A DNA stretch of 64,000 bases, taken from positions 8,815 to 72,814 of the forward strand of contig NZ_JAOASO010000144.1 of assembly GCF_030158645.1 (NCBI RefSeq), read 5' to 3'. Of this stretch, positions 552 to 3,879 are shown in pieces. Each line of letters starts with the position of its first letter. Positions within the stretch are counted from its first letter, which is position 1. The position numbers and the translations under genes were made by a program. The notes beneath the pieces are model-generated. The model ran no database searches and had not been told where the DNA came from. It saw only the letters and a list, made by a program, of their open reading frames with translations. The stretch comes from Hydrogenophaga sp. (GTDB taxonomy: Bacteria > Pseudomonadota > Gammaproteobacteria > Burkholderiales > Burkholderiaceae_C).

Positions 552-641
552 CCGCGCTGCAACGCACACGGTCGTGAAAAGCACAACCGCCTGGCCAGTG
601 AACTGGCGCAGGCGGTTGCAGGTTGGATGCCGGCGAGGAAA

Positions 642-2231
642 TCAGGCGCGGGCCACACCGGTCTTGAACACCGCCACCGACTCCACCAGTTGCAGCGCTT
701 GCTGCTTGAGGCTGTCGGCCGCGGCGGCGCTTTGCTCCACCAAGGCGGCGTTCTGCTGTGTGCCCTGGTCCATGCGGGTGATGGCCTGACCGACCTGCGC
801 CACGCCCGAACTCTGCTCGGCGCTCGCGGCGCTGATCTCGCCCACGATGTCGCTCACGCGGCGGATCGAGGCGACCACTTCCTGCATGGTGGTGCCGGCC
901 TGGTCGACCAGCGCTGAACCCTGTTCGACGCGGTCCACGCTGGCGCCGATCAGACCCTTGATTTCCTTGGCGGCTTCGGCGCTGCGCTGGGCAAGGTTGC
1001 GCACCTCGCCAGCCACGACCGCAAAACCCCGGCCCTGTTCGCCCGCACGCGCCGCTTCCACGGCGGCGTTGAGCGCCAGGATGTTGGTCTGGAAAGCGAT
1101 GCCGTCGATGACACCGATGATGTCGCTGATCTTGCGGCTGCTCTCGTTGATGCCCTTCATCGTCTGCACCACGCGGCCCACCACCTCGCCACCCTGGATC
1201 GCCACGCTGGAGGCACTCTGGGCCAGCTGGCTGGCCTGGCGTGCGTTGTCGGCGTTGTGGCGCACGGTCGTGCCCAGCTGCTCCATGGTGGCCGCGGTTT
1301 CCTGCAGCTCGCTGGCCTGCTGCTCGGTGCGGGACGACAGGTCCTGGTTGCCCGAAGCGATCTCGCCACTGGCGTGCGACACGTAGTCGGAGCTGCGGCG
1401 CACATCGGTCACGGCCTTGGACAGACCTTCCTGCATGGTCTGCAACCAGGCCAGCAAGCTGTCGGTGTCGCCCTTCTTCAAGTAGATGGGTGTCGTCAGG
1501 TCGCCCTCGGCCACCGCGCGGGCAATGCTCACGGCCGTTCGCGGCTCACCACCGAGCTGCCGCAACATGTTGCGCGTGATCATCATCGACAGACCGATGC
1601 CGATCACCAGCGACAGGCCGATCAGCCCCATGACCGCAAACCGGGCCTGGTTGTAGACCGTGGTGACCAGCGTTGCAGAGGCTTCACCGCCGTCGTAGTT
1701 GTACTTGAGCAGCGCCGTCAGAGTCGTGATCACCTCGTCAAACGCCATGCTGGCCAGTCCGTCGGCAATATCGGCAGCGTCCACTTGCAGCTTGTCGCGA
1801 CCGAGCTTGATGACTTTTTCGTTGGCCTGCAGGTAGGCGGTCCAGGCGGTGGACAGCTTGTTGTTCAGCGCCGTCTCTTCCTCGCCCGACACGCGCCCCT
1901 GATAACCCGCGAACAAGGCCTGCAATGACTTGCCGGCCTCCTTCATCTTGTCTTCGTACTCGGCGTGGTAGCTGGTGTCGTCGGTGCGGCTGTGTTTGAC
2001 CTCGAACTCGCGGTACTCGATCGCCAGCGCGCGGGCGTCCGACAGGGCGCCCACGCCCTTGAGCCATTTCTGGGACAGCGCGATGGCTTCGCCATCCACG
2101 CTCTTCAGTCCCACCAGAGCGGTGGCGCCCAGAGCAGCCGTCAACACCAGGATGGACGCAAACGCGCCGAAGAGCTGCTGGCCCACCGTCAAACGACGTA
2201 GCCAGCCAAAGGGATTGGGAAGTTTTTTCAT
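642..2231 (-). CDS. Methyl-accepting chemotaxis protein with four-helix-bundle periplasmic sensor
   Basis: Two TM segments, HAMP-like LGGEP, signalling hairpin [30 protein letters not shown]. Confidence 0.95.
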   Translation of the reverse strand: MKKLPNPFGWLRRLTVGQQLFGAFASILVLTAALGATALVGLKSVDGEAIALSQKWLKGVGALSDARALAIEYREFEVKHSRTDDTSYHAEYEDKMKEAGKSLQALFAGYQGRVSGEEETALNNKLSTAWTAYLQANEKVIKLGRDKLQVDAADIADGLASMAFDEVITTLTALLKYNYDGGEASATLVTTVYNQARFAVMGLIGLSLVIGIGLSMMITRNMLRQLGGEPRTAVSIARAVAEGDLTTPIYLKKGDTDSLLAWLQTMQEGLSKAVTDVRRSSDYVSHASGEIASGNQDLSSRTEQQASELQETAATMEQLGTTVRHNADNARQASQLAQSASSVAIQGGEVVGRVVQTMKGINESSRKISDIIGVIDGIAFQTNILALNAAVEAARAGEQGRGFAVVAGEVRNLAQRSAEAAKEIKGLIGASVDRVEQGSALVDQAGTTMQEVVASIRRVSDIVGEISAASAEQSSGVAQVGQAITRMDQGTQQNAALVEQSAAAADSLKQQALQLVESVAVFKTGVARA

Positions 2232-2244
2232 CGCGCCACCGCCA

Positions 2245-2733
2245 TCACTTCTTGTGACCGATGTAGCTGGCGCCGATCACTTTGCCGCCGGCGTCCTTGA
2301 TCGGGTTGTAGCAGGCGTCAAAGGCGGTGCCGAGCACGTCGATGGGGCCGCAGAACTGCTGGCCCTTGCTCACGGAGTCATAGGCGGCGTTGCGGGCGAG
2401 CTGGGTGCCCACGCCGCGTTTGCCTTCGGGCGTGAGCACGTTGGTGCTGACGCGCACGAACTCGTCGCCTTCTTTCACGAACACGGTGGCGGTGGCCTGG
2501 TGGCTCTTGCGGATGCCGTCGACCACGTCGAAGTTGTTGTTGATCTTGCGCTCGCCGAAGAACAGGGCGGGCACGGTCTTGCCGGCGACGGTGTCGGTGC
2601 CCTCGACGCGCGGTGCACCGATCTTGGTCAGGCGACCGTCGAGGTCGGCGATGGTGGCCTTGGGGTCGTTGGCGTGGGCGAAGGAGGCAGAGACGGCCAG
2701 CGTGGCCAGCATGAGGGCGCGGTTCAGTTTCAT
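2245..2733 (-). CDS. Secreted stand-alone Cache (Cache_3/Cache_2-fusion type) domain protein
   Basis: Sec signal MKLNRALMLATLAVSASFAHA; Cache signature ATVFVKEGDEFVRVSTNV...GVGTQL...YNPIKDAGGKVIGASYIG; no TM or output domain. Confidence 0.85.
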   Translation of the reverse strand: MKLNRALMLATLAVSASFAHANDPKATIADLDGRLTKIGAPRVEGTDTVAGKTVPALFFGERKINNNFDVVDGIRKSHQATATVFVKEGDEFVRVSTNVLTPEGKRGVGTQLARNAAYDSVSKGQQFCGPIDVLGTAFDACYNPIKDAGGKVIGASYIGHKK

Positions 2734-2783
2734 GAGAACTCCATATGGGACAAGGTTGAAGGGCATCCGGCGGATGTAAGCCT

Positions 2784-2810
2784 GTATCGGTCGCAACCCG
2801 TCGGACTTGA
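2784..2810 (-). promoter_or_regulatory. Probable sigma28 (FliA) promoter for the Cache-MCP operon
   Basis: Minus strand TCAAG-N14-ACCGATAC versus consensus TCAAG/TAAAG-N14-GCCGATAA, 50 bp upstream of the ATG. Confidence 0.7.
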
Positions 2811-2899: not shown

Positions 2900-3187
2900 T
2901 CACACCAGGGTGACCAGCGCCAACCAGCCCACCGAGGCCCAGCGCTGTACCGGGCTGACCGGCTGGCGCCACACCGCCCCCACGAGGAACAGGTTGTAAG
3001 GCAGCGGCGTGAAATGCACCGCGGCGGCCCACGCCATGTCGACGCCGGAAGCCGCCATGGCCAGCGCAATGCCCGTGGCCAGCACATTGATCAGCGTGCC
3101 CACCAGCACCATGTCGCGCCAGAACAGCACGCGCATGGGCACCTGGGCGCGCCAGCGGGCGCTGAAAAATCCGGTGGCGTCCGGCAT
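2900..3187 (-). CDS. Small membrane protein of unknown function
   Basis: About 3 hydrophobic segments; ATG overlaps the stop of the upstream esterase (ATGA). Confidence 0.7.
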   Translation of the reverse strand: MPDATGFFSARWRAQVPMRVLFWRDMVLVGTLINVLATGIALAMAASGVDMAWAAAVHFTPLPYNLFLVGAVWRQPVSPVQRWASVGWLALVTLV

Positions 3188-3879
3188 CAGCTTGCGGCCA
3201 GCACGCGCACCAGCCAGGTGTTGAGATCGGCCACCTCCTGTGGGCAGACTGAGTGCTCCATGGCATAGGTGTGCCACTCCACCGGGTAGCCCAGCGCCTT
3301 CAAGGCATCGCGCGATTCGGTGCCGCGCTGCACCACCACCACCGGGTCCTGGCTGCCGTGCGCCAGAAAGATGGGCACGTCGCGGTTCGCCTCGGTGCGC
3401 TCGGTGGCGGTGCTGGCCGCCAACGGCAGATACCCCGAGAGCCCCACCAGACCGGCCAGGCGTTGCGGCGCGCGCAGCCCGGCCATGAGCGTCATGGCAC
3501 AGCCTTGCGAAAAACCCATGAGCACGGTGCGCCCGGGCGGCACGCCCCGCGCGGCCTCCCGGTCCAGCAGGCCCTGCACCAGGGCGCAGGACTCGCGCAG
3601 ACCGGCCTCGTCTTCCCGGCGCGACTGGCCGATGGGTGGATGGATGTCGTACCAGGCGCGCATCTCGTAACCACCGTTGAGGGTGACCGGGCGCACCGGT
3701 GCCGTGGGGAACACAAAACGCACCGGGCCGATGGCGTCCAGATCGAGCTCTTGTGCGATCGGCACGAAGTCGTTGCCGTCGGCGCCCAGGCCGTGCAGCA
3801 CGACGATGCTGGCCACGGGCGTGGCCGCGGGGTTGCTGCCAGTGAAGAGTTCGAGGGTTTCAAGCGTGTGTGAGGTCAT
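3187..3879 (-). CDS. Phospholipase/carboxylesterase (alpha/beta hydrolase)
   Basis: LHGLGADG, GFSQG nucleophile elbow, HGSQDPVV, EHSV. Confidence 0.93.
   Translation of the reverse strand: MTSHTLETLELFTGSNPAATPVASIVVLHGLGADGNDFVPIAQELDLDAIGPVRFVFPTAPVRPVTLNGGYEMRAWYDIHPPIGQSRREDEAGLRESCALVQGLLDREAARGVPPGRTVLMGFSQGCAMTLMAGLRAPQRLAGLVGLSGYLPLAASTATERTEANRDVPIFLAHGSQDPVVVVQRGTESRDALKALGYPVEWHTYAMEHSVCPQEVADLNTWLVRVLAAS

Follow-up and report, generated by a model that had tools for sequence, protein, structure and literature searches.

Among the extracellular sensors of bacteria, Cache domains are the most common, and they are regarded as integral parts of the receptors that carry them. Here we analyze a stretch of 64,000 nucleotides from Hydrogenophaga sp. 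(assembly GCF_030158645.1, contig NZ_JAOASO010000144.1, positions 8,815 to 72,814 of the forward strand; hereafter the window), in which the minus strand encodes a stand-alone Cache protein with a predicted signal peptide, followed by a methyl-accepting chemotaxis protein (MCP) whose own periplasmic sensor is a four-helix bundle (4HB). The Cache protein is probably the detached ligand-binding partner of the 4HB receptor. Its closest described counterparts are the formate-sensing receptors of the Cache_3-Cache_2/sCache_3_3 type (PacF, Atu0526, R3 = 8PY1, and R6 = 8PY0; PMC11804620), with which it shares Pfam families, fold, and ligand residues. Unlike these sensors, which lie between the two transmembrane helices of an output-bearing receptor, it appears to be free and secreted: it has neither transmembrane helices nor a signaling domain, ends right after the last strand, carries a cysteine pair, has a tyrosine (Tyr157) in place of the pocket-floor phenylalanine (F206 in PacF, F175 in R6), and groups with other stand-alone proteins in a clade of their own. 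The study of the formate sensors found these domains almost exclusively in chemoreceptors and did not discuss free forms (PMC11804620), and in a 2026 preprint on heme-binding Cache proteins (PMC12889525), the occurrence of a Cache module on its own is described as highly unusual within the superfamily. The stand-alone heme sCache proteins treated there (DUF3365/Tll0287) are likewise Cache modules that occur as free exported proteins, but they belong to a different Cache family, with a CXXCH heme motif and a proposed redox role, and no dedicated MCP partner has been described for them.

Periplasmic binders that act on chemoreceptors are known from the systems that depend on solute-binding proteins (SBPs), namely MBP-Tar, RBP/GBP-Trg, DppA-Tap, LsrB-Tsr, PstS-CtpL, and AibA/B-TlpB (reviewed in PMC8050422). 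The locus resembles them in that a predicted soluble periplasmic binder is proposed to stimulate a helical-bundle receptor, which is conserved at the bundle apex; it differs in the Cache (PAS-like) fold of the binder, in the lack of a partner ATP-binding cassette (ABC) transporter, in its organization as a dedicated two-gene unit, and in that docking is here a proposal only. The 13 SBP families listed in the same review include no Cache-fold binder. In LuxP-LuxQ, TorT-TorS, NspS-MbaA, and GlnH-GlnX, as here, a binder and a membrane sensor are co-encoded and mutually dedicated, for signaling and not for transport, but those binders have the SBP fold and the outputs are kinases or cyclic di-GMP enzymes, whereas the window pairs a Cache-fold binder with an MCP output. 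CetB-CetA of Campylobacter and ODP-TM14 of Treponema provide examples of an output-less sensor protein encoded beside an MCP or MCP-like transducer. These sensors are cytoplasmic and cofactor based, in contrast to the Cache protein, which has a Sec signal peptide and a small-molecule pocket, and whose MCP has a periplasmic sensor of its own; a closer analog of them is a sister lineage of Cache modules fused to the C-terminus of MCPs (P0161 and others, see below). No paper found in full-text literature searches describes a Cache protein that is free and paired with an MCP. The pair can be regarded as a probable variant of binding-protein-dependent chemoreception in which the Cache-fold binder would be new.

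The Cache Protein, Its Pocket, and the Receptor

The Cache protein is matched in Pfam by Cache_3-Cache_2 (E-value 4.7e-30) and sCache_3_3 (1.2e-25), with scores of 105.3 bits for PF17201 (cut-off 27.7), 90.4 for PF17202 (28.8), and 29.6 for PF17203 (28.4). The Cache_3-Cache_2 match covers only positions 60–183 of the 299 in the profile, and no NCBIfam model matches the protein. Its signal peptide (MKLNRALMLATLAVSASFAHA, cut ahead of NDP) is not followed by any hydrophobic segment, and every orthologue has an equivalent leader ending in A-x-A ahead of (N/Y/D)DPKATIA. An AF2 model built with 67 homologues has a predicted local distance difference test score (pLDDT) of 89.3 overall, above 90 across nearly all of the mature chain and below 50 for residues 1–19, and displays a single-module Cache fold, with a helix at residues 24–38 and the PAS-like strands and helices expected. 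The protein has no transmembrane helix and no output domain, its stop codon is present in all of the approximately 95 orthologous loci, and more than 2000 homologues have the same length. The signal peptide and the missing anchor point to export.

Among solved proteins, those closest in sequence are 8PY0 (E 3.5e-13) and 8PY1 (E 1.3e-11), which also make up the top five Foldseek matches of the model (E 7e-11 to 2e-9, probability 1.00, template-modeling score about 0.7). Both are chemoreceptor sCache sensors that were crystallized with formate (Monteagudo-Cascales et al., PNAS 2025, PMC11804620). The residues that hold formate, T131, F133, R142, T145, T158, Y191, and F206 in PacF numbering (PMC11804620; preprint 10.64898/2026.04.10.717710), map to T83, F85, R94, T97, T110, Y142, and Y157 of the Cache protein. 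The first six are invariant both in 67 stand-alone homologues and in the canonical receptor-fused relatives; position 157 is a tyrosine in the stand-alone proteins and mostly a phenylalanine in the fused ones, some canonical receptors also having a tyrosine. From these residues, the most likely ligand is predicted to be formate or another C1–C3 carboxylate, formate being the first candidate. The protein is the sole formate-type Cache of its genome, where the next match (28% identity) lies within an 887-residue frame.

The cysteine pair to which the earlier note drew attention is indeed present, as C128 (in FCG) and C141 (in DAC), and is invariant in all orthologues. The two residues fall on neighboring strands of the model (127–133 and 136–146). 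Moreover, the pair is found in the members that bear a signal peptide and is absent from the cytoplasmic C-terminal fusions, a distribution that fits a periplasmic disulfide. The model and this distribution suggest that the Cache protein is probably stapled by a C128–C141 bond in the periplasm.

In the MCP, Pfam identifies a 4HB_MCP_1 sensor (2.4e-21) and an MCPsignal domain (3.5e-56), and the NCBIfam models of Tar/Tsr/Trg/Tap-type transducers match the cytoplasmic part only, below cut-off. An AF2 model of the N-terminal 215 residues places helices at 16–82, 86–111, 117–145, and 149–214. The structure nearest to the sensor model is the ligand-binding domain of MCP2201 from Comamonas; no sequence relative of the sensor was found among solved structures. 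Invariant or near-invariant residues of the sensor cluster at E77–K95 and L143–G158, and each cluster flanks a membrane-distal loop of the model (83–85 and 146–148). Direct ligand sites of 4HB sensors also lie near the bundle apex, so that the apical conservation, as placed by the model, is compatible with docking of a partner protein and not specific to it. Maltose-binding protein, for instance, has been modeled on Tar at the bundle apex (PMC8050422).

Linkage of the Two Genes and Their Promoter

We surveyed one genome per genus of the family to which the window belongs (151 genera). A stand-alone Cache orthologue, with 59–81% identity, was found in 15 genomes, the remaining matches (at most 42% identity) being located inside long receptor frames. 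Linkage of orthologues to MCPs and fusion of the two frames in close relatives had both been named in the earlier note as refuting tests. In all 15 genera, a full-length orthologous MCP, aligned from residue 1, follows the Cache gene on the same strand, and the arrangement recurs in 79 of 79 testable loci of a species-level set, whose sources include Hydrogenophaga, Acidovorax, Rubrivivax, Piscinibacter, Rhizobacter, and Methylibium (an 80th locus ends at a contig edge). No fused Cache-4HB frame was found in any orthologous locus. The reciprocal search of the same 151 genomes with the MCP sensor (E ≤ 1e-15) identified orthologues in exactly those 15, always at the Cache locus; the next matches (24–28% identity) were in genomes lacking a Cache orthologue. 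The flanking genes of the window were found only at the nearest Hydrogenophaga loci, which indicates that the Cache and MCP genes are kept, or travel, as a unit, and no transporter gene lies within the pair or is conserved beside it. Across 69 orthologous pairs, mean pairwise identity is 85% for the mature Cache protein, 53% for the MCP sensor, 58% for the second transmembrane helix and HAMP region of the MCP, and 80% for its signaling domain.

A few of the loci have peculiarities of their own. On contig CAVUBY010000012.1 (L004/L084), the downstream MCP aligns in three pieces in different frames, being either a pseudogene or the result of an assembly error in this 66%-complete metagenome-assembled genome (MAG). 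Hydrogenophaga MAG_35 (NZ_JADMJO01) has two copies of the pair on different contigs (L032 and L037), with Cache proteins 98–99% identical to that of the window; one copy has different flanks and no sigma-28 box, and the duplication probably reflects a mix of strains in the bin. Burkholderiales-type pairs (77–97% identity) are also filed under Synechococcus sp., Chitinophaga pinensis, and Anaeromyxobacteraceae (L036, L056, L060, and L076), labels that are likely due to bin contamination or mislabeled MAGs.

The promoter box sits 50 nucleotides ahead of the ATG of the Cache gene and conforms to the FliA type, TAAA/TCAAG-N14/15-GCCGATAA, at a suitable distance upstream. The 3.7-Mb genome contains 13 instances of the motif [TC][CA]AAG-N14-[GA]CCGA[TA]A, where base composition predicts about 3.4. 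Seven of these lie just upstream of chemotaxis or flagellar genes identified with Pfam, which encode CheW, a CheY-like receiver, FlgM, an Aer-like PAS protein, two 4HB MCPs, and the Cache protein. The promoter match exceeds chance, and FliA itself is encoded in the same genome (278 bits, cut-off 189.6). A survey for sigma-28 boxes was among the checks listed in the earlier note. Of 78 orthologous loci in other species, 32 keep a strict box no more than 260 nucleotides upstream of the Cache gene, with varied spacer sequences; like linkage and fusion, this test did not refute the proposal. As a control, 4076 windows of the same loci gave 32 matches, which equals the number of promoter instances that those windows include. 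No sigma-28 box was found between the Cache and MCP genes in any orthologous locus, and the spacing between the two genes is equally short in 24 of 79. As part of the explanation that we favor by a little over even chances, the locus would be a two-gene, FliA-dependent chemosensory unit, for which FliA dependence and a joint mRNA are predicted.

Among relatives with longer spacers (L049–L111), stable hairpins are predicted in 32 of the 49 intergenic regions, a count made with no shuffle control. Several of these hairpins are followed by U-tracts (L067, L068, L083, and L086) and resemble the intercistronic attenuators found after binding-protein genes. To judge from their sequences, such hairpins suggest that these species either make the soluble protein in excess or transcribe the two genes in part separately.

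On the minus strand of the window, the unit consists of a promoter, two genes, and a terminator (table 1). Every part described in the earlier note was recovered where it had been placed: the promoter, the Cache-only gene with its signal peptide and no transmembrane segment, the 13-nucleotide gap, and the 4HB MCP. The Cache gene starts at ATG 2733, with GGAG 6 nucleotides upstream, and stops at TGA 2247–2245; a start at TTG 2796, given by a mechanical list of open reading frames (ORFs), was rejected because ATG 2733 fits the homologues, the Shine-Dalgarno element, and the promoter. The MCP frame runs from ATG 2231 to 642. The terminator hairpin (619–576; minimum free energy −36.9 kcal/mol, z −3.06) is retained in the centroid structure, and within the pair a terminator is present only after the MCP gene. 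Outside the two-gene unit lie a carboxylesterase gene and a gene for a small membrane protein, both upstream, as well as a LysR-type gene downstream on the opposite strand. The carboxylesterase gene (3891–3187, minus strand) ends in TGATG, its stop codon overlapping the ATG of the small membrane-protein frame that ends at 2900, and from the sequence the two frames look translationally coupled (3180–3190, minus strand); the ORF list puts the start of the small frame further upstream, at a GTG.

Table 1. Features of the Cache-MCP Locus, in Window Coordinates
Feature	Positions	Strand	Basis
Sigma-28 (FliA)-type promoter box, TCAAG (2810-2806)-N14-ACCGATAC (2791-2784)	2784..2810	-	Read from sequence
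Gene for stand-alone single-Cache protein, predicted secreted, 162 aa (stop included in coordinates)	2245..2733	-	Pfam, AF2, Foldseek
Predicted Sec signal peptide, residues 1-21, cleavage after AHA	2671..2733	-	Sequence, orthologue leaders, pLDDT
13-nt spacer from Cache stop to MCP start, with GGTGG Shine-Dalgarno-like element	2232..2244	-	Sequence
MCP, 529 aa: four-helix-bundle sensor, HAMP region, signaling domain	642..2231	-	Pfam
Periplasmic sensor of the MCP (four-helix bundle, about residues 42-190), with conserved patches at 77-95 and 142-157	1662..2108	-	AF2 model, conservation profile
Intrinsic terminator, 16-bp GC-rich hairpin followed by GCUUUUC	576..619	-	RNA folding

Stand-Alone Relatives and C-Terminal Fusions

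Stand-alone relatives of 160–250 residues are numerous, and some show the same association with MCPs outside the orthologous group. In a low-GC organism, a protein with 43% identity and the cysteine pair (P0132) is encoded 18 nucleotides before an MCP of 512 residues whose periplasmic domain is helical; no match to P0132 was found in a metagenome scan. In another Burkholderiales family (L120), the Cache gene precedes an MCP gene in the same layout as in the window. Five further homologues (P0161, P0169, P0185, P0194, and P0208) are MCPs of unusual architecture, with two N-terminal membrane helices, no periplasmic domain, and a Cache_3-type module at the extreme C-terminus, after the signaling domain; this module is presumably cytoplasmic.

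In a maximum-likelihood tree, the stand-alone proteins and C-terminally fused modules all fall into one clade (support 100/99), to which the canonical N-terminal Cache sensors from the window's bacterial family do not belong. Within it, the clade of the window, P0132, the C-terminal fusions, P0141, and three unplaced members form a subclade (100/96), so that association with MCPs recurs there, by adjacency or by fusion. Read from these architectures, the C-terminal fusions are a link of the Rosetta-stone type between this Cache type and MCPs, and they indicate that a Cache module need not have its own transmembrane helix to act on an MCP.

In a phylum-wide sample of genomes, stand-alone copies occurred only in the window's own family, all other matches being fused to receptors; this sample gives no unbiased estimate of MCP linkage for the stand-alone family as a whole. 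The contigs of P0124, P0184, and P0182 are too short for their neighbors to be judged. Two other arrangements were encountered: P0123, P0148, and P0149 consist of two tandem copies of the stand-alone module and nothing else, and in Bradyrhizobium sp. P5_C11_2 (L114, 5001–6225) an orphan Cache_3-type protein adjoins, on the opposite strand, a stand-alone sCache_2 protein of 159 residues, with no receptor gene near this pair.

Competing Explanations and Biological Meaning

The explanation that we slightly favor is a dedicated two-part sensor, in which an exported Cache protein that binds formate or a short carboxylate acts on the apex of the 4HB MCP, both being expressed with the late flagellar genes. 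The free Cache protein would bind formate, or a similarly small C1–C3 carboxylate, in the pocket that runs from T83 to Y157; either loaded with ligand or as a permanent subunit, it would dock on the conserved membrane-distal apex of the bundle, and the MCP would pass the signal across the membrane to CheA. Secretion, the disulfide, the identity of the ligand, physical docking, and the direction of the response are what we infer here. The central proposal of the earlier note, a Cache protein that serves as the dedicated binding protein of the MCP, therefore stands in part: the invariant linkage, the perfect co-occurrence, and the formate-sensor pocket speak for it, and the unlinked wider family and the ordinary character of the 4HB sensor speak against it.

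Several observations weigh against a two-part sensor. Stand-alone homologues at about 45% identity are not adjacent to MCPs in Methylobacterium, Bradyrhizobium, a Limnocylindria MAG, a 1.1-Mb contig, three other Burkholderiales families, and P0141, which indicates that the Cache fold can function where no receptor is linked to it. Nor is MCP docking signaled by the very high conservation of the Cache protein, because mean pairwise identity is nearly as high in the orphan clade as in the linked one (78% vs. 82%); an argument for docking from this extreme conservation was rejected for that reason. The 4HB sensor resembles ordinary direct-binding sensors, MCP2201 being the nearest, and could sense ligands of its own, and its apical conservation could equally mark a small-molecule site. 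Regarding the ligand, Cache_3-Cache_2 domains with identical key residues can prefer lactate, propionate, or pyruvate (preprint 10.64898/2026.04.10.717710); the same residues can thus serve C3 acids over formate, and the prediction extends to the class of ligand only. Finally, the stable and sometimes terminator-like intergenic hairpins of many relatives imply that co-transcription may be partial there.

Much of this would also be expected if the two proteins were co-regulated neighbors that never touch, the Cache protein being an autonomous periplasmic binder of formate or carboxylates (a buffer, a scavenger, or the partner of an unlinked protein) and the MCP sensing directly through its 4HB. 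Such a scheme agrees with the orphan status of stand-alone homologues that have unrelated neighbors in several lineages, with an orphan clade as conserved as the linked one, with an MCP sensor similar to direct-binding ones, and with the terminator-like hairpins that part the two genes in some relatives. We nevertheless consider it fairly unlikely, given the perfect adjacency and co-occurrence across hosts whose flanks are not shared, the independent recurrence of the pairing, the fusion of the same Cache type to MCPs, and the lack of a transporter or enzyme gene traveling with the pair. Linkage and co-occurrence, on the other hand, are genetic evidence that serves equally well a Cache protein that modulates the MCP and carries no ligand to it, either as a constitutive subunit on which folding or insertion into the array depends or as a decoy that competes for ligand and tunes sensitivity. 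Operon-encoded partners such as LuxP-LuxQ and TorT-TorS are indeed permanent complexes (PMC8050422), and the hairpins that follow the Cache gene in relatives would favor an excess of the soluble protein. A complete and invariant pocket, however, argues that ligand binding matters, which a pure chaperone would not need, and a decoy would work only if the 4HB sensor bound that ligand too, of which there is no indication; we regard such a modulator as unlikely.

The Cache gene might also be the degenerating remnant of a disrupted Cache-type chemoreceptor, or a functionless artefact of gene calling, and the closest fused relatives of its product are in fact sensor domains of MCPs. Conservation contradicts this origin, which we hold to be highly improbable: about 95 loci have an undamaged frame that includes a signal peptide, the mature protein is on average more conserved across genera than the MCP signaling domain, the gene has its own Shine-Dalgarno element and promoter, and the protein belongs to a clade separate from the canonical fused domains. 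Fission of a Cache-MCP gene as the origin of the 4HB receptor was likewise rejected, as this MCP has a complete sensor of another fold.

A broader and more tentative proposal, to which we give somewhat less than an even chance, can be made for the family. Secreted single Cache modules may represent an undescribed class of periplasmic co-receptors for helical-bundle chemoreceptors, that is, a third route of input beside direct and SBP-mediated binding. The co-receptor of this family would hand formate, or some other very small carboxylate, on to a receptor that cannot accommodate such a ligand in its own sensor. In the fused lineage, the module would work in cis behind the signaling domain of cytoplasm-facing MCPs, hence by protein–protein contact and not through a transmembrane piston, and the orphans of methylotrophs and rhizobia would have receptor partners encoded elsewhere.

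The system is small and easily tested, since it comprises two genes, a ligand that is likely cheap, and cultured carriers in Hydrogenophaga, Rubrivivax, and Rhizobacter. If true, the proposed partnership would bring into chemotaxis a class of periplasmic binding proteins that is new to it, and would account for some of the four-helix-bundle receptors that have yielded no direct ligand. It would also change the prediction of sensory repertoires from genomes, because stand-alone Cache genes are now ignored in receptor censuses.

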